Source: a virus (Duplodnaviria; Heunggongvirae; Uroviricota; Caudoviricetes). Taken from it: a DNA stretch of 33,955 bases. The stretch spans positions 1-33,955 of IMG/VR virus record IMGVR_UViG_2778261417_000008; one strand, 5' to 3'. Of the stretch, positions 5,367 through 16,840 are shown one piece after another (within the stretch, counting starts at the first letter, position 1; the number at the start of each line of letters is the position of its first letter). A model generated the notes under the pieces. The model saw nothing but the letters and a program-made list of their open reading frames with translations, was not told the origin of the DNA and made no database searches. The translations under genes and the position numbers were made by a program.

Positions 5367-6251
5367 TTATGGATTGCGCTTATGGATCTGGAAGCCGATT
5401 TTCCTGCCGTTTTTTATCTCTGAAAATTTAAGATATTCAATAGCTTCCAAATCTTTCATGGCTTTTCTGATAACGCTATTTTGCACGCTAACGGATGATT
5501 TGAGATTAAGCCTCGCTCTAAGGCGCTCAATGCTGACAGGTGCCGGGTTGGCGGGTAGAGCCTCAAAGAATGTATACAGTACCTTGGCCGTCTCTTTGCG
5601 CCCTAGTTTATCCAGCATCTTCAGCTTCAGGATTCGCTTATAGTCAACATAGTAAAGTTCAGATAGCTGTTTCTGCGGCTGGATCTCGATAACATCAAGC
5701 TCGGTATTCAGGCTGCTATATGCCAACAAGTTGACGTTAATGTTATTGAGATGACCTTTTGCCGCCGGGAAGCGGAATTTGACAACTGTCTGCTGAATGC
5801 GTGTCAGAGAGTCATCAATACTTTTACGGAACGCCTTTGAAAGGCGCTTACGTGGATAGCCGCATCGATCGGCAAACTCGGAGAATGGCAGGGTGATTAT
5901 GCCGTCATCATCAGGTGCGTAGTCAAACAACGCGGAGGTTATGCCCACCCACACCTTAAAATCAGTATCCATATCCAGGCGTGGACCATGAATTTCAATT
6001 CCCTCATAGCCTTCCTGCTCAACAATTTTGAGGCTTGATAGTTCTTCGGTTGCGTTCGTTGTGTTTGTAGTAACTGACGATCCGCGACGTAGCGCCACAT
6101 TGGTAGATTTTAAGGTTGGCACAAACACACCTAAGCGCAACAAAGCGATGGGTTGTATAGTGCTGTTGTTATTGGGCTTCAGGCTGTGGATTTCTCCTGT
6201 ATTTCCTGCAACTTCTTCAACGCTAAGGAAGCCTTTACTTTCTTCCGGCAT
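5367..6251 (-). CDS. repA: RepA iteron-binding replication initiator (P1 RepA family, divergent)
   Basis: Shares blocks with P1 RepA (…QPIALLRLGVFVP…, …GPRLDMDTDFKVWVGI…). Likely start is the ATG at 6251 (GGAG 7 nt upstream); the ORF track extends to 6287. Confidence 0.85.
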   Translation of the reverse strand: MPEESKGFLSVEEVAGNTGEIHSLKPNNNSTIQPIALLRLGVFVPTLKSTNVALRRGSSVTTNTTNATEELSSLKIVEQEGYEGIEIHGPRLDMDTDFKVWVGITSALFDYAPDDDGIITLPFSEFADRCGYPRKRLSKAFRKSIDDSLTRIQQTVVKFRFPAAKGHLNNINVNLLAYSSLNTELDVIEIQPQKQLSELYYVDYKRILKLKMLDKLGRKETAKVLYTFFEALPANPAPVSIERLRARLNLKSSVSVQNSVIRKAMKDLEAIEYLKFSEIKNGRKIGFQIHKRNP

Positions 6252-6330
6252 CGCGGTTTCTCCATGTGTGGCGCGGCCTGACGTCAATTTGGATGGCTGT
6301 TATCAACAGCTGTGAATATTCAGACTCTAA

Positions 6331-6433
6331 AATCGCTTACAGTCAATGTTTCTGTCGCGTATAGTCAACAATAAATCGCGTGCAGTCAACAATAAATCGT
6401 GCACAGTCAACATAAAATCGCGTATAGTCAATG
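6331..6433. repeat. incC-like origin iterons: five direct repeats at about 21-bp spacing upstream of repA
   Basis: AATCGCGTATAGTCAAC-like units at 6331-6348, 6354-6371, 6374-6392, 6395-6413, 6416-6433. Confidence 0.85.
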
Positions 6434-6545
6434 TTGATCCCATTTCAGGCCAGAAATGGCGCGGCTTACAGCGATCCGGGATCTTCTTTGGATCTTCCTA
6501 GGTTCTCTTTAGGATCTGTTTATTGGATCTATGCTGTGGATAAGT
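6434..6545. promoter_or_regulatory. Origin-associated GATC cluster (six or more Dam sites) and DnaA box (TTATCCACA, minus orientation, 6533-6541)
   Basis: Dense GATC repeats (tgatccc, cgatccggg, ggatcttc x2, aggatctg, ggatctat) and a consensus DnaA box next to the iterons. Confidence 0.7.
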
Positions 6546-6585
6546 TGAATAAACCGGCCAACATAGCCGGTTGGAAGGAAGGGTA

Positions 6586-6978
6586 TTATTCTACGCTTTC
6601 GATAAGAAGACCATGTTCATAACATTTAAGCTCATCGCCTTCGTACAGGAATTGGTATCCAATACCACCATTTTCATGGACATTAGGGAATAACTCATAA
6701 CTCACTGAAGAGCAAATCACACCAATGCAGCGATCAACGCCTTCTCGTTCTTCAGTGCTGAAAAAATCCTCTTCGGTAAGAACATGAGTACATTGCTCAT
6801 CAGCATAGGTCGGAAATACATGCTCGATGCAATCCGGGTGTTTTAAACCAAGCTGATCGGCAAGCTCGAAAGCATGACGGTATTGTTCAGATCCTGGCTT
6901 GCCAACAGTGATGTGCTCAATTTTGTAGATTGAAGTCGCTTTGTTGATAGTTTGCTTTACTGTTACTTTATCAGACAT
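6586..6978 (-). CDS. Hypothetical Cys-rich protein (130 aa)
   Basis: Clean ORF adjacent to the origin; no family recognised. Confidence 0.45.
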   Translation of the reverse strand: MSDKVTVKQTINKATSIYKIEHITVGKPGSEQYRHAFELADQLGLKHPDCIEHVFPTYADEQCTHVLTEEDFFSTEEREGVDRCIGVICSSVSYELFPNVHENGGIGYQFLYEGDELKCYEHGLLIESVE

Positions 6979-11074: not shown

Positions 11075-11094
11075 AAAATTATTAGTGCAATTTT
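11075..11094 (-). promoter_or_regulatory. C1 repressor operator-like site (ATTGCACTAATAATTTT) upstream of the 11149 operon
   Basis: Close match to the P1 C1 operator consensus ATTGCTCTAATAAATTT. Confidence 0.6.
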
Positions 11095-11396: not shown

Positions 11397-11975
11397 ATGT
11401 TGCGCTTTACTGAGGAAGAGTTTCAGGCTTTTAGTGAGCGTCGAAATAAGGGGCGGTCCAGGCCAAAAACCAAAAAGGATCCATTCTTATCGCTTGCGCC
11501 GGTAAAAGAAGTTTCTCCACATGCGAAGGCACTTGCAGCACTGGCAAAGAACCCCGACCTGCGCGACGGAAATTGCGAGCACTTCGAGCAGGTTTTCATT
11601 TTTGATTACTTCGAACGCAAGCACCCTGACATCTATGAGCTGTTGCATGCAACGCCTAACGGAGGGAAACGTTCAAAAGCAACCGCCGGGAAAATGAAGG
11701 CTGAAGGGCAGAAAAAAGGTTATCCGGACATGAGTCTCGATAAAGCATGCGGTATTTATCACGGCATGCGAATTGAGCTTAAAGAACCAAATGGTAAAGC
11801 CCCGACGAAAGAGCAGATCGCCTGGATGCGCAGGCTTAGAGAGGAAGGTTACTACGTCGTTCTTGCGTATGGTGCAGAACAAGCGATAACCGCCATCCTG
11901 GAATACATGAGCCTTAAAAAGGGTGAGGCTATTGAGCATGTATTGAACGGTGACAAGTGGTTGTACGCTACGTGA
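11397..11975 (+). CDS. VRR-NUC-like nuclease domain protein (192 aa)
   Basis: …GYPDMSL…IELKEPNGKAPTKEQIAWMRRL…GYYVVLAYG… resembles the VRR-NUC / PD-(D/E)XK fold; start is 2 nt after the preceding stop. Confidence 0.55.
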   Translation: MLRFTEEEFQAFSERRNKGRSRPKTKKDPFLSLAPVKEVSPHAKALAALAKNPDLRDGNCEHFEQVFIFDYFERKHPDIYELLHATPNGGKRSKATAGKMKAEGQKKGYPDMSLDKACGIYHGMRIELKEPNGKAPTKEQIAWMRRLREEGYYVVLAYGAEQAITAILEYMSLKKGEAIEHVLNGDKWLYAT

Positions 11976-12171
11976 AATAATAAATTAATTAGTGCATATG
12001 TGCTCTTTGATATAGCGCACATTAACATCGGGAGAATAATCGTGTCATCCAAGGCTAATTATGAATCGCTGGCATCGATCATGCCGCGTAATGAACAGGA
12101 AGCAGATGCTGTAGTGGACCCGGTAATCGCTGAAATGAATGCTCGCCTGGAGGCTGAATTTGCAGCTGAGA

Positions 12172-12801
12172 ATGAACATACCACCCAGGGCGACTAGGAC
12201 TGTTTTTTGTGTCGGTAGCGGTCCGTCACTCACTCGTGAGGACTGTGCTGCTATAGAAAAAACTGGCTGTTCAATCATCGCGGTTAACAATTCCTGGCAG
12301 ATGTTCGATGACATTTATGCCTTATACGCCGGTGATTTGTCATGGTGGAAGCAATACGGATCCACCATACCGGGAGGGAGATTCCGCAAAGTGACAGCCA
12401 ACCTGGCGGCGGCGAAATCATTTTCGTTGGAGTACAGGCGATATTGTGGACCGGCTGAAGGGGTTAATAGCGGCGCGCAGGCTATCAGTCTGGCGGCTGA
12501 ATCAGGGGCTGAAGTAGTTGTATTAGTCGGCTATGACTGTTCTCTGCAAAACGGCCTTCATTGGCATGGAGCACACCCTCAAGCCCTACGGAATCCAACG
12601 CAGGTGTCTATTTCAAAATGGCAACAGCAGTTCCTGGATACCCGCAAAAAACACGCAGATTTACATATTTTGAATGCAAGTAGGAGCAGTGCAATTCAAT
12701 GTTTCCCAAGAATAAATTTAGAGGCAGTGATCGCGTTATTATCGTCGGCAGTGGCCCAAGCGCCGCAAACTTTGTTGCGCCGCGCGGAGTGCCGATTATA
12801 G
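12172..12801 (+). CDS. Hypothetical Rossmann-like protein (paralogue 1), GSGPS…IAVN motif
   Basis: Start inferred at the ATG at 12172 (the ORF track begins at 12139). Shares a VGSGPS…IIAVN…core with the next ORF. Confidence 0.5.
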   Translation: MNIPPRATRTVFCVGSGPSLTREDCAAIEKTGCSIIAVNNSWQMFDDIYALYAGDLSWWKQYGSTIPGGRFRKVTANLAAAKSFSLEYRRYCGPAEGVNSGAQAISLAAESGAEVVVLVGYDCSLQNGLHWHGAHPQALRNPTQVSISKWQQQFLDTRKKHADLHILNASRSSAIQCFPRINLEAVIALLSSAVAQAPQTLLRRAECRL

Positions 12802-13325
12802 CGGTCAATGGGGCCATCGACTGGCTGAACCGCGCTTCTTATTTTTTCACACTTGATCCATCGCCAGACAATATGCGGCGCGTTGGTCGTGGCCGCCGTC
12901 GCCGTGGTGTTTGTTATTGCATGGCACTACCCGATGTTAAAGAACGTGAAGTCAGAGACGGCGTTCTGTGCTTCCGTCGTGTGGCTGAACGTGGCATGGA
13001 GCCAAAAAATACGAATTCTCCCGAGTGGTGGGCGTGGCGCTGGTCCGCACATTTCGGACTTTGCGAAGATGAGAATGAAATTGCCAGCGGCAATAGTGCA
13101 TATGGCGCTCTGAACCTGGCTTTCCATATCGGATTCAAACATGTCGCCCTGGTGGGCGTTGACGCTACACAAGAACCACGCGTTCACTCCGACGGCACGC
13201 CAAAAAATCTAAGTCACCTGCCTTTGTTATTCCAGTCTGCGCGTGAACAGATTGACGTTGTTTCATGCGGGAAAATGGGAGGTATTCCGCAGATGACTCT
13301 TAAAGAATGGCTGAAGAATACATGA
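12699..13325 (+). CDS. Hypothetical Rossmann-like protein (paralogue 2), GSGPS…IAVN motif
   Basis: [29 protein letters not shown]; overlaps paralogue 1 by about 100 nt in another frame. Confidence 0.5.
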
Positions 13326-13999
13326 TGGCACCCACAATTTATCACCGTATCGACGGTACCAAATACAGGAATGTCTGGGTTGTTGGTGATCTGCATGGTT
13401 GCTACACCAGACTGATGTCCGAACTCCATCGTGTGGATTTTGACCCGGCGCAGGATTTACTGATATCGGTCGGCGACCTTATCGATCGCGGTACTGAAAA
13501 TGTCGAATGTCTGGAACTATTGCAGATGCCCTGGTTCAGAGCGGTCATGGGTAACCATGAGCGGCTGATGATTGATGCGTTAAGTCCAGATGGCAACGTG
13601 AATAACTGGCTAATGAATGGCGGACAATGGTTCTTCATGCTGGACACTGATCAGGAAATATTAGCCTGGGCGCTGGTGGAGTTGGTAAGACGACTGCCCT
13701 ATATCATTGAGTTGAACACCGGGCAAGAAACTATCGTTATAGCCCATGCCGACTATCCGGATAATGAATACCAATTCGGTAAGGAGGTGCCGCTTTTCAA
13801 CGTTGTCTGGGCGCGCGAGCGTATCAGTGATTCGATGGATGATATTGGTGGCGAAATTTCGGGCGCAGATCGTTTTATCTTTGGTCACACTCCGGTGAAA
13901 AGCCCGAAGACATTCTGGAATCAGCAGTATATCGACACTGGTGCCGTATTTTGCGGAAACCTGACATTGATGAAAGTGAAAGGTGATGGTGCAGCATGA
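13322..13999 (+). CDS. ppp: Ser/Thr protein phosphatase, lambda PPase-like metallophosphoesterase
   Basis: GDLHGC…GDLIDRG…GNHE motifs. P1 carries a gene called ppp; equivalence is inferred. Start is ambiguous (13307, 13322 or 13325). Confidence 0.75.
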
Positions 14000-14997
14000 A
14001 GATTGCTTTAGTTTTTCGCTCTGGTGGTGACTATAACGCTTCCGATGTGCAGTGGCTGGTTAATCAACTGCCAAAAGGCTATGAAATTATTTGCCTGACA
14101 GACCTGAAGCGTTTACATGTACCTGGCGTCAAAGTTGTCCCATTGATCAACCAGTGGCAAAAGTGCCGTGGCTGGTGGGCGAAAATAGAGTTGTTCCGAC
14201 CGGATATAACAGATGATCTGTTCTATCTGGATTTGGACACAGTTATTGCCGGTGATATACGCCCAATCCTTGAGAATCCACCAACCAGCTTCACCATGCT
14301 TAGGGATTTTTACCATCCACAATATCGTGGTAGCGGTGCCCTGTGGATACCAAATAGTGTAAAAGCGCATATCTGGAGTGCATTCTGGCAAGATCCGGAA
14401 GGTTGGGTTGCTCGTTGTGTTACTACTGAATGCTGGGGTGATCAGGGGTTTTTGCGGAAGGTTATGGGTGATGATACACCAGCATTTCAGGATCTGTATC
14501 CGGGATGGTTTGTAAGTTACAAGGCCGATGTTGTGGAACCTGGTTCGAAATATGCGAGCGCGCGTTACTCCAAGGGGAATGGGGCATTACCAAAAGACTG
14601 CCGAATAATCTTTTTCCACGGCAAACCGCGACCTCGCGAAGTGTCAGAGGATTGGCTTCCCCTTATCAGCTCGTTTTTTGAGCGAGAATCAGAATTATAT
14701 TGCTCTAATAATTCCATATTTTTAAAGCGTGATGTACACTCATCACGTTTTTTATTAGAGCAATCTACAGGGTGCACTATGTGGCCATTCCGACGGAAAT
14801 ATCACTACTGGCTGATCGCCTTTGTTACGCCGACCGGCGGTATCAGGCATGTCATCACCAGGTATCGCAACAAGAGACTCACCTTAGCCAGAATTTTACA
14901 GGCTGCCATAGGTGAGGGACTGGATACAAATTGCGTAGTCCTTCCTCCTTCATACTTAGGAAAAATGACCGAAGCACAAGCTAATACGGAACTTTGA
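13996..14997 (+). CDS. Hypothetical protein with a DxD (YLDLDTV) motif; possible glycosyltransferase
   Basis: 333-aa ORF, start overlaps the previous stop. DxD motif only; weak assignment. Confidence 0.4.
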
Positions 14998-14998
14998 A

Positions 14999-16261
14999 AT
15001 GAGCACTTCAGCACAAAACCAATCAATCGAAAATGTATCTATCCCTGATGTCCTGAATGCCGGTATCCCGGCCATTATCCAGAACATCCGGGCCGCGCAA
15101 CGCCGCGTTAGTTGTGATGACCTCACAGCACGTTTTTTTGATAATGCGGTTCAGTCAGCGGAGATGCTTCACGCACAGCTTATTGATGTTTATAACGCAG
15201 AAGCTGATAGCCATAACTCCCTGGTAGATGCAGCTGAAAATATGCAGTTGGATCTCGGTCTGAAGGGTAAAGAAATTGAAGAGCTTCAGCTGCAAATTGA
15301 ACATTTGAAACGCCAGCAACAGGACGCGATCGACGATGCGACGCATGACGCCAACCAGCGTGCTGATAATGCCGAACGTATAAGCATTGAGCTGGAAACA
15401 AAACTCAATGAAGTGACCGCGATGGTTGAACTGCGGAACTCACAGATTTCAACGCTAAAATCTCAATATAAAGAGATCATGAAACTTGATCCTTTTAACC
15501 TTGAGAAACGCTATAACAAAGCCAAAAGTGAGCGACAGGAACTGCGTAAGCAGGTCGCCGACCTTAACCAACAGCTCAAAAAGACTATTAAAGATGCAAG
15601 TGAGGCGCGCGTGGCATTTGCTAATAAAAAAGCAGAGGTTACCGCGCTGGTTAATGAGAATGCCAAATTTGCGACGCTCAAGAAGGAAATGTATGGCATT
15701 ACTGAGCGACGTTTCCCTGCAAGCAAACTTCATCCGACGTTAGGGCAAATCTCCTTCTTCCCGCGCCTCCTGGCTTATGGGATCTCATCGCCTAAAGAGT
15801 TCAATAACGAGCGTCCTTATATCGTTTCTAAGCTGGACTTTGCTTATCAGTTCTGCTGCGACATGGGCTATGCCATTGATATCCGAATCAACGAATGGTT
15901 GATGCCAAACTTCCAGCCGTTGGCCATTTTCCGCGAGTTCCAGCCGGAAGGTTGGGTAGAGTTCTTCCATGAATTGATCTGTAAAGAGATGGAAAGCCGC
16001 CGCCCGGAACTGGTCCGTCGAGTTGAGTGGGCGCAAGAGGTTATGTTGGCAGAGGCAGAGCTGCCGTTCGAACCGGAATTTATTGATGATCTGGCAGCTA
16101 AAGGGCTGCATACCCTGTTTGATGTGGTTACCCGCCGTCATGAGCAGTTGGTTGTCGAATTGGGTTTAGAGGAAACAGCGGCAAGAAGACTTCTCGATGT
16201 TTGCTATGCACGTAGCGATGCATGGGAAAAAGAGAACGGCGGCACTATTTACGTTCGCTGA
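14999..16261 (+). CDS. Hypothetical protein with an N-terminal coiled-coil (420 aa)
   Basis: Heptad-rich Q/E/K/L segment at residues about 60-220; C-terminal domain unrecognised. Confidence 0.45.
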   Translation: MSTSAQNQSIENVSIPDVLNAGIPAIIQNIRAAQRRVSCDDLTARFFDNAVQSAEMLHAQLIDVYNAEADSHNSLVDAAENMQLDLGLKGKEIEELQLQIEHLKRQQQDAIDDATHDANQRADNAERISIELETKLNEVTAMVELRNSQISTLKSQYKEIMKLDPFNLEKRYNKAKSERQELRKQVADLNQQLKKTIKDASEARVAFANKKAEVTALVNENAKFATLKKEMYGITERRFPASKLHPTLGQISFFPRLLAYGISSPKEFNNERPYIVSKLDFAYQFCCDMGYAIDIRINEWLMPNFQPLAIFREFQPEGWVEFFHELICKEMESRRPELVRRVEWAQEVMLAEAELPFEPEFIDDLAAKGLHTLFDVVTRRHEQLVVELGLEETAARRLLDVCYARSDAWEKENGGTIYVR

Positions 16262-16333
16262 AAGTTACAGTGTCACTTTTGATGCTGGTGGAGTGCGCCC
16301 ACCAGCATTTTTTTCGTCCAATGAGGAGGGCAT

Positions 16334-16840
16334 TTGAGTATTTTCAATAAACACGCACACCAGGAACGTCCGTATATCGTCATAGTTGATATTGATGGAA
16401 CAATATCAGAGGCAACTGAAGACAGACTGCATTTGCTTCCGCCACCAGGTAAAGGTGCATTAACAAAGGACTGGAACGAGTTTAATCTCGCCTGTGACAC
16501 TGATACTCCCATAACTCCAGTTATTGATATTGTGCGCCAGTTATTTAACGTTTACACGGTCTGGTTTGTAACCGGACGCTGTGAGATCGCAAGGGATAAA
16601 ACACGAGCCTGGCTGCGGAAGTACGTAACAAACGGGGCTGAGCCTTTGCTATCTATGCGTCCTGCCACCGATGACAGAAATGACGGCCCAGCAAAGATTG
16701 ATCTCCTTAAGAAAATTGGTCTAAGTAAAATCGCGTTCGCGCTGGAAGATAAGATTGAAGTGGCGCGTGTTTTCAGGAGGCACGGCGTGCTTACGTTAAT
16801 GGTCAGGGAGTATGAAAACGCGCTTCTCCATCAACAATAA
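16334..16840 (+). CDS. HAD-superfamily phosphatase-like protein (168 aa)
   Basis: VIVDIDGTIS (DxDGT) motif I near the N-terminus; possibly the P1 pap-like gene. Confidence 0.55.
   Translation: MSIFNKHAHQERPYIVIVDIDGTISEATEDRLHLLPPPGKGALTKDWNEFNLACDTDTPITPVIDIVRQLFNVYTVWFVTGRCEIARDKTRAWLRKYVTNGAEPLLSMRPATDDRNDGPAKIDLLKKIGLSKIAFALEDKIEVARVFRRHGVLTLMVREYENALLHQQ

Follow-up and report, generated by a model that had tools for sequence, protein, structure and literature searches.

The MptE-like or sialyltransferase-like fold is known from enzymes of several described systems. Maf flagellin glycosyltransferases are proteins of about 630 amino acids (aa) with extra N- and C-terminal domains; Cst-I and Cst-II are sialyltransferases of CAZy glycosyltransferase (GT) family GT42; and archaeal MptE is a 6-hydroxymethyl-dihydropterin pyrophosphokinase. 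WaaZ of Escherichia coli (CAZy GT73), a chromosomal protein of 283 aa encoded in the waa cluster, is associated with the third Kdo (3-deoxy-D-manno-octulosonate) residue of the lipopolysaccharide (LPS) core. Phages also carry glycosylation clusters, small sets of transferases supplied, in the lytic phase, with LPS-type sugar nucleotides of the host, and virion glycosylation has reportedly been found in mycobacteriophages (Freeman et al. 2023, cited in PMC12801897). The known clusters use GT-A or GT-B enzymes of other families, and MptE-like enzymes are not among them. Here we describe two overlapping genes, pmgO and pmgP, and their partner pmgQ, which may form a set of a similar kind. They lie in a 33,955-nt DNA from a tailed phage (Caudoviricetes; IMG/VR record IMGVR_UViG_2778261417_000008, positions 1 to 33,955), the whole of which is called the window below.

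The window is from a P1-like phage. The 6 kb around pmgO and pmgP are 97.6–98.6% identical to P1, P7, RCS47, SJ46 and other Punavirus members, and DNA comparison showed the same gene order there as in P1, P7, RCS47 and SJ46. The two open reading frames (ORFs) are named pmgO and pmgP in P1 (AF234172; proteins AAQ14058 and AAQ14059) and hdmB and hdmC in P7 (AF503408), and they overlap by 103 nt in both records. Identity (98–99%), operon, overlap and C1 operator are all the same as in the window; the only substantive difference lies downstream, where the pmgQ stop codon has been lost in the window. The genes are thus known ones, annotated since 2004, and their labels, "putative morphogenetic function" and "head morphogenesis", were guessed from gene position. 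We favor, with moderate confidence, the reading that pmgO, pmgP and pmgQ would encode a three-enzyme glycosylation module in which the donor for PmgO and PmgP is probably CMP-Kdo, and that pmgO and pmgP are a pair of paralogues with an inherited overlap.

Fold and kinship of PmgO and PmgP

The initial annotation of this DNA described two adjacent ORFs of roughly 210 aa that share GSGPS and IIAVN motifs. Both ORFs and both motifs are present (Table 1). PmgP has 208 aa and PmgO 220 aa; the start first assigned to PmgO is the in-frame Met12, which would give a protein of 209 aa. The invariance of the pmgN/pmgO overlap favors the ATG at 12139 over that at 12172 as the start of pmgO.

AlphaFold models of PmgO and PmgP have their top three PDB neighbors in common. 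These are the Maf flagellin glycosyltransferase 5mu5 (scores for the two proteins, 14.0 and 13.4), the archaeal MptE pyrophosphokinase 8sd5 (11.0 and 12.8), and the alpha-2,3-sialyltransferase Cst-I, 2p56 (10.4 and 10.8). The next matches were SteA, thiamin pyrophosphokinases and eukaryotic GT29 sialyltransferases, and a structure search of BFVD returned only uncharacterised MptE-like phage proteins. The Rossmann-like, nucleotide- or sugar-nucleotide-type fold proposed earlier was therefore right in kind. The models show PmgO and PmgP as predicted soluble, single-domain proteins of about 200 aa with an MptE-like or "sialyltransferase-like GT-A variant" fold, and no transmembrane segment was predicted. 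By fold, both belong with Pfam family PF01973 (MptE-like, DUF115/Maf). In the two protein families, 20 of 21 and 27 of 28 members matched it at an E-value of 0.1 or better, and a natural fusion of PmgO to PmgP (P0171) clears the family threshold at 44.6 bits.

Neither protein fits with the Maf or the GT42 enzymes. Maf proteins are multidomain proteins of about 600 aa with flagellar or nonulosonic-acid gene neighborhoods, whereas PmgO and PmgP are bare catalytic-size domains with phage neighbors, no flagellar or pseudaminic-acid genes nearby, and only 16–17% identity to Maf. With the GT42 enzymes Cst-I and Cst-II they share structure, but they have no detectable sequence homology to GT42 members or to any PDB chain. 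E. coli K-12 is not known to make CMP-sialic acid, and it is therefore very unlikely that the sialyltransferase label points to the actual donor; no sialic-acid synthesis gene was found in any locus examined, and kdsB was the sole donor-pathway gene found. The pair makes up a new and uncharacterised branch within a known superfamily of enzymes.

Between the two translations, pairwise BLASTP detected similarity only in the N-terminal 36 aa (E = 0.003). Family profiles built from 20 PmgO-family and 28 PmgP-family sequences, with the fusion protein left out, aligned over their full length by hhalign (PmgO 17–199 against PmgP 8–206; 162 columns, probability 97.4%, E = 1.4e-11). Each protein also cross-matched the PHROG family of the other (1.8e-5 and 6e-4), and PmgP-family queries matched PmgO-family genes of distant prophages over their full length (L148 at 3e-7, L152 at 5e-6). 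By these profile comparisons PmgO and PmgP are ancient paralogues, with full-length homology beyond chance. The "internal duplication" suggested earlier thus holds as homology but not as a recent event: identity is about 25% at the profile level, the two families are separately conserved, and the active-site motifs that follow the shared G-x-D strand differ (GYDCS..G.HWHG.H in PmgO, GVDAT..R.EGG....LSHLP in PmgP).

This divergence raises the question of whether both proteins are enzymes. One paralogue might be catalytic and the other a degenerate scaffold or specificity partner in a heterodimer. The histidines of the PmgO HWHGxH motif are not conserved in PmgP, where the residue aligned with H163 is Glu in most members; most PmgO-family genes of prophages have no adjacent PmgP gene, so PmgO can work alone; and the fusions described below show a tight partnership. 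On the other hand, PmgP keeps invariant polar residues of its own (N37, D53, N132-S133, D155 and H173), and these sit at positions shared with PmgO (the GPS loop, AVN, D, NS and GxD), a pattern that would be typical of an active enzyme. The PmgP family is also the larger one (328 matches against 51 for PmgO in a word-indexed search), and PmgP is fused to PmgQ in proteins that have no PmgO. We consider a single catalytic partner quite unlikely and continue to treat both paralogues as predicted enzymes.

A recurring pmgO-pmgP-pmgQ module

Eight phage lineages have homologues of pmgO, pmgP and pmgQ together: P1-like phages, among them the Pantoea phage-plasmid L086; the distant P1 relative L170; Citrobacter phage phiNP (L164/165), with the genes placed between its lysis cassette and its terminase gene; the podovirus-like contig L083; L156, in the order O-Q-P; L166; and L169, E. 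coli phage EP_H11 and the jumbo phage XacN1. The phosphatase gene ppp, which separates pmgP from pmgQ in P1, is outside this conserved set: L170, phiNP and L083 have no ppp between the two. The PmgQ family profile matched members of GT8, namely the Skp1 alpha-galactosyltransferase 6mw5 (3.3e-5), glycogenin (2e-4) and 5gvv (9e-3). The DxD motif, D79-x-D81, is invariant in the family, and PmgQ can be counted with GT8 on these features; the Pfam GT8 match of the family is weak (best 0.042, 4 of 11 members).

The initial annotation proposed looking for homologues fused into one gene, and such genes exist. P0171, a 376-aa protein of L083, is an in-frame PmgO-PmgP fusion in which the PmgO helix and the PmgP start are kept in series, and its gene is followed by pmgQ. 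An exhaustive search of 1.84 billion representatives, in which the best 150 of 2133 matches contained no second O-P fusion cluster, also yielded two PmgP-PmgQ fusions without PmgO (P0189 and P0277), along with two proteins (P0247 and P0249) in which PmgO-like domains stand in tandem. By the Rosetta-stone argument, in which separate genes are linked by their fusion in other genomes, P0171, P0189 and P0277 support a functional, possibly physical, partnership. Together, these loci show that pmgO, pmgP and the GT8-like pmgQ form a module that recurs in unrelated phages and is sometimes fused.

The partners also bear on a different function for the pair. Because MptE and thiamin pyrophosphokinases are among their structural matches, PmgO and PmgP might be small-molecule pyrophosphokinases or kinases of that type, acting on a cofactor, nucleotide or signaling molecule in infection. 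We judge this decidedly unlikely. The best structural match of both proteins is the Maf glycosyltransferase, and GT42 and GT29 sialyltransferases were matched as well. Their partners are glycosyltransferase-like: PmgQ is GT8-like, a Nucleotid_trans protein is found in L083 and L169, and the partner in a second type of module is weakly GT9-like. The L170 operon contains kdsB. Pterin, folate and thiamin genes are missing from the gene context, and other lineages have the module without Ppp. We take it as more likely than not that the proteins transfer a glycosyl group of some sort.

The second type of module was seen at about 40 loci (L088, L089, L092, L094–L113, L120–L131, L141, L146, L157, L159 and L168). 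Here a gene for a conserved protein of about 280 aa comes after a PmgO-like gene, or is fused to it, and is accompanied by one for a Methyltransf_23 S-adenosylmethionine-dependent methyltransferase of about 205 aa; fused forms occur in L104, L111, L112, L117, L123, L124, L131 and L159. In the 280-aa protein a GLGD motif is invariant and a CxC..HxC motif is also present; the best PDB match of the protein is the GT9 heptosyltransferase WaaF. That match is weak (E = 0.033), and neither Pfam nor hhalign against WaaU gave anything, so a GT9 identity for the C-terminal domain fused to PmgO in Burkholderiales prophages, which had looked GT9-like on inspection, is no more than a lead. A Hafnia prophage has this module placed between its holin and terminase genes.

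Other associations were also observed. In P0197 (556 aa) a PmgO-family protein is fused to a C-terminal immunoglobulin-like (Big_1-type) region, and in Serratia plymuthica (L166, 9616–11442) a PmgO-like gene is followed by genes for two Big_1 proteins, with a second PmgO-like copy at 16216–16731. These Big_1 cases might point to a connection with surface or structural proteins. In L169 (7001–10438), a 247-kb jumbo-phage-like JGI contig, a GIY-YIG homing-endonuclease-like gene lies on the opposite strand between the PmgO and PmgP homologues; the PmgP homologue has a C-terminal extension of about 100 aa, and the Nucleotid_trans gene lies between P and Q.

The pmgO-pmgP junction and its operon

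The out-of-frame overlap of about 100 nt noted in the initial annotation is exactly 103 nt, with pmgP in the −1 frame of pmgO (Table 1). On the PmgO side the overlap encodes a conserved C-F-P-R-x-x-L-E helix and then a variable tail; on the PmgP side it encodes a variable N-terminus followed by strand 1, the GSGPS loop and the first part of IIAVN. The pmgP ATG (12699–12701) consists of the last base of the PmgO Gln187 codon plus the TG of the Cys188 codon. A purine-rich motif is found at the place equivalent to the pmgP Shine-Dalgarno sequence in L086 and L170.

We compared the junction in every lineage in which the PmgP gene comes after the PmgO gene. The sequences and overlaps were caATGTttccc in P1 (103 nt), gcAATGTTTCCC in Pantoea L086 (49 nt), gaAATGTTACCC in L170 (109 nt), gaAATGCTTTCA in the Citrobacter rodentium phage phiNP (L164/165; 94 nt), caCGTGTTTTAT in the Microbulbifer contig L119 (133 nt), and acATGCttcgag in E. 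coli phage EP_H11 (L171; 37 nt). The six lineages agree in how the PmgP start codon is built: the final base of one PmgO codon supplies its first letter, and the conserved Cys codon supplies its TG. PmgP is always in the −1 frame. The Cys of C-F-P-R-x-x-L-E is conserved in most aligned PmgO sequences, including those with no PmgP downstream; the start codon would therefore have been "free" for pmgP, and its construction on the A|TG(Y) of the Cys codon accounts for the constant frame. The conserved terminal helix of PmgO lies over the variable 11-residue N-terminus of PmgP, and the invariant strand 1 and GSGPS loop of PmgP lie over the non-conserved tail of PmgO. Because the conserved part of each protein faces a variable part of the other, the two frames would make few conflicting demands. 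No ATG, GTG or TTG is found in frame between 12699 and PmgP strand 1, so at least about 37–45 nt would be read in both frames; the rest of the 103-nt overlap of P1 is due to a late stop codon and the non-conserved PmgO tail. This comparison shows a junction that, to judge from its conservation, is ancestral rather than accidental.

Sequence variation among P1-like phages was examined in 56 haplotypes from 81 loci (near-identical loci from a viral-contig scan with the PmgO alignment). The longest invariant run of pmgO and pmgP is 12640–12760 (gap 122; permutation P ~5e-5), and the second longest, 12139–12194, matches the pmgN/pmgO overlap. There were 4 variable sites in the 103-nt overlap and 114 in the 1084 nt elsewhere (Fisher p = 0.037), and three of the four are non-synonymous in the PmgO tail. 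The polymorphism data support constraint on the O/P junction.

These data also bear on whether the overlap might be an annotation artefact, the genes really abutting and the overlap not being translated in both frames. The last 18–20 residues of P1 PmgO are non-conserved and modeled with low confidence, and the overlap length ranges from 37 to 133 nt between lineages. Against this, pmgP has no alternative in-frame start before strand 1 and the GSGPS loop, and the C-F-P-R-x-x-L-E motif of PmgO lies downstream of 12699 and is found in homologues without PmgP as well. The junction is, moreover, the least polymorphic stretch of both genes, and 84 of 84 P1-like loci keep exactly 103 nt. We regard an artefact as hardly credible.

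The initial annotation took the overlap as a possible sign of translational coupling. Coupling of the stop-start type was not borne out: the pmgP ATG lies 100 nt upstream of the pmgO stop codon and has its own Shine-Dalgarno sequence, and there is no termination-reinitiation arrangement (ATGA or TAATG) of the kind seen in XacN1, where the overlap is of the 4-nt type. Around the pmgP start the RNA showed no structure beyond that of shuffled controls (z = +1.18), so it would not have to be unmasked by ribosomes coming from upstream. Neither this region nor the RNA 3′ of the heptamers folded better than shuffled sequence, and a sequestered ribosome-binding site and a frameshift stimulator were both rejected as candidates. 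Instead, pmgP would be translated by independent internal initiation on the same mRNA, and the overlap would guarantee co-transcription and keep the pair from separating. Most plausibly the overlap simply locks both genes into one transcript.

Ribosomes might alternatively shift frame inside the overlap, for example at A_AAT_TTA (12714–12720), and so make a PmgO-PmgP fusion like the natural one. The constant −1 frame in the six overlapping lineages would suit this, as would the existence of the natural fusion and the two in-frame X_XXY_YYZ heptamers of P1; L086, L170 and L119 have one or two. But the heptamers are absent from phiNP (L164) and EP_H11 (L171), and elsewhere their place and sequence vary. 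The RNA 3′ of the heptamers is not significantly structured (z = −0.59), Rfam had no match in 11900–13500, and the combination of a conserved heptamer with downstream structure expected of a programmed −1 frameshift is thus not found at pmgO/pmgP. In addition, the same nucleotides encode the PmgO terminal helix and PmgP strand 1, so that a shifted product loses one of them, whereas the natural fusion keeps both in series; and pmgP has its own conserved ATG and Shine-Dalgarno sequence. Frameshifting is in our view highly improbable, and we retain independent initiation.

An inherited overlap of this kind matters for annotation, since PmgP homologues are missed or shortened. In EP_H11 (OP688485) the homologue at 6001–6609 is unannotated in GenBank, where there is a gap between coding sequences ending at 6037 and starting at 6602; it was probably missed because its start lies inside the upstream gene. 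In the C. rodentium prophage the homologue is 176 aa in one annotation (L164), with loss of the GSGPS loop, and 206 aa in another (L165).

Table 1. Positions of features in and around pmgO and pmgP, numbered from the first nucleotide of the window
Feature	Position	Strand	Remarks
PpmgN promoter hexamers	11943–11969		conserved in the window
C1 operator Oppp	11982–11998	−	upstream of operon pmgN-pmgO-pmgP-ppp-pmgQ; annotated at the homologous position in P1 AF234172; 1 of 17 positions differs from P1
pmgN, 65 aa	12000–12197	+	function not assigned; from ORF list and P1/P7 annotation; overlaps pmgO start
pmgO (P7 hdmB), 220 aa	12139–12801	+	MptE-like/sialyltransferase-like predicted enzyme; residues 1–16 disordered; alternative ATG 12172
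PmgO motif V25-G-S-G-P-S30	12211–12228
PmgO motif I46-I-A-V-N50	12274–12288
Invariant stretch, zero variable sites	12640–12760	+	spans pmgP ribosome-binding region, ATG and first 62 nt of overlap
Shine-Dalgarno AGGAG for pmgP	12682–12686	+	made of PmgO codons R182-S183 (AGG AGC), R182 invariant; 12 nt 5′ of ATG
Dual-coding overlap, 103 nt	12699–12801	+	PmgO residues 188–220 read together with PmgP residues 1–34
pmgP (P7 hdmC), 208 aa	12699–13325	+	MptE-like paralogue
Slippery heptamer T_TTC_CCA, pmgO frame	12702–12708	+	judged incidental
Slippery heptamer A_AAT_TTA, pmgO frame	12714–12720	+	judged incidental
PmgP motif I14-I-V-G-S-G-P-S21	12738–12761
PmgP motif I33-I-A-V-N-G-A-I-D-W42	12795–12824
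ppp, lambda NinI-like Ser/Thr phosphatase	13307–13999	+	Pfam Metallophos 1e-15; phrog_246; overlaps pmgP
pmgQ, GT8-like DxD glycosyltransferase	13996–14997	+	phrog_1962 "glycosyltransferase" 8e-127; reads through into pmgR

In the P1 and P7 annotation the operon pmgN-pmgO-pmgP-ppp-pmgQ stands behind the C1-repressor operator Oppp and the predicted promoter PpmgN, both of which are conserved in the window. The overlaps run in series along it: 59 nt for N/O, 103 nt for O/P, 19 nt for P/ppp, and 4 nt for ppp/Q. No sigma-70-like internal promoter was found within 11900–13400.

At the end of the operon the pmgQ stop codon (14695–14697) is TTA in the window and TAA in P1, P7 and all 23 P1-like loci where it could be located. 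The ORF continues in frame through C1 operators and the PpmgR promoter region into pmgR and ends at 14997, giving 333 aa rather than 233. The pmgR gene, which is reported to be essential, retains its own ATG at 14779. The C1-operator consensus ATTGCTCTAATAAATTT had ten matches in the window with three or fewer mismatches (11075, 14699, 14748, 16840, 25151, 27308, 29959, 30423, 30506 and 32544), and those at 11075, 14699, 14748 and 16840 coincide with C1 operators annotated in P1. PADLOC gave no defense-system match for PmgN, PmgO, PmgP, PmgQ, Ppp or Pap. PmgS (14999–16258) had weak PADLOC matches to LmuB, an SMC-like Lamassu component (E = 2e-4), which probably reflect coiled-coil similarity only.

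Donor, acceptor and meaning of the module

In the mechanism that we propose, PmgO, PmgP and PmgQ would be glycosyltransferases that cooperate, one after the other or in a complex, to assemble a short glycan in the lytic phase. The donor of PmgO and PmgP would be a CMP-activated ulosonic acid, in enterobacterial hosts most plausibly CMP-Kdo, as for WaaZ, and PmgQ would add a hexose from a UDP-sugar.

The case for Kdo comes from WaaZ, gene context and hosts. E. coli WaaZ matches PF01973 over residues 1–195 (E = 6.9e-7), and the fusion protein P0171 has a faint precomputed match to PF27901 (WaaZ_KDO_III). WaaZ differs from PmgO and PmgP in that the latter are phage-borne, and no LPS phenotype is known for P1. 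In L170 the gene order is PmgM, PmgO, PmgP, PmgQ, a PmgS-like gene, two unassigned genes, and KdsB (CMP-Kdo synthetase), which adjoins a Pap homologue. The KdsB assignment is firm (TIGR00466, 270 bits against a cutoff of 155). The gene kdsB is rare in phages (six INPHARED records). Its presence in this operon is meaningful, although a single case. Pap was also considered as a KdsC-like Kdo-8-phosphate phosphatase, and this was dropped when the L170 Pap homologue gave no NCBIfam match. The hosts of family members belong almost all to LPS-bearing phyla, and CMP-Kdo is, to our knowledge, the only CMP-ulosonate made by all these Gram-negative hosts. We name CMP-Kdo as the donor of PmgO and PmgP only tentatively.

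The acceptor might be the inner core of LPS, or else a protein of the phage or of its host. A protein is suggested by the nearest structures, which are of protein-glycosylating enzymes (Maf for PmgO and PmgP; glycogenin and the Skp1 transferase for PmgQ), and by the predicted solubility of all three proteins. LPS is suggested by the kinship with WaaZ, by the weakly GT9-like partner in the second module, and by the receptor of P1, which is the LPS core. Phage transferases that add Kdo or heptose to 5-hydroxymethylcytosine exist (bioRxiv 10.1101/2023.12.21.572611), and DNA as acceptor is a formal possibility. DNA-glycosylating systems based on this base need a methyltransferase and a TET-like oxidase, and neither was seen in the pmg operon examined. 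P1 DNA behaves as ordinary DNA. A more specific proposal, that this is a mobile phage-borne system placing a Kdo-containing glycan on a non-LPS acceptor in lytic growth (a virion or host protein, in the manner of Maf O-glycosylation, or even nucleic acid), we consider unlikely.

Several observations weigh against a glycosylation module with Kdo as donor. P1-type PmgO and PmgP score 23.4 and 20.9 bits, below the PF01973 gathering threshold of 34.6 bits, and a PDB sequence search with the PmgO profile matched no solved structure meaningfully. Glycosyltransferase function is a prediction for every family member, and translation of both frames of the overlap is read from conservation. Direct hhalign comparison of the PmgP profile with WaaZ was weak (probability 15%). 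Of about 90 O/P/Q loci examined, only L170 has kdsB, and there was only one O-P fusion cluster among the best 150 of 2133 matches (1.84 billion representatives searched). The literature searched contained no report of glycan changes in P1 virions or LPS. Knockouts of 24 pmg/upf genes and CRISPR interference with pmgO, pmgP, ppp and pmgQ gave no plaque defect, and PmgO, PmgP and PmgQ are not among the reported virion-associated proteins (PMC10695390, PMC9024508). On laboratory E. coli, plaques form without the module.

In the literature searched we found no functional study of pmgO or pmgP, of phage MptE-like proteins, or of prophage Kdo glycosyltransferases. The full-length paralogy, the ATG-in-Cys-codon junction, the O-P-Q module with its fusions, and the link to kdsB all seem to be absent from it as well.

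P1 is among the most used phages in genetics, and this operon has stood under a placeholder name for twenty years. The analysis offers a concrete hypothesis for three of its genes, as a conserved and horizontally mobile transferase-like set that is supported by fusions and linked to Kdo. If virion glycosylation or LPS remodeling were its role, the module would bear on immune recognition of phages, receptor masking and host range, and would be relevant to the P1-like phage-plasmids that spread resistance genes such as CTX-M and mcr-1. If the module carried out Kdo-based glycosylation of an acceptor other than LPS, it would count as a form of phage-directed modification not recognised before, and one that P1 itself carries.

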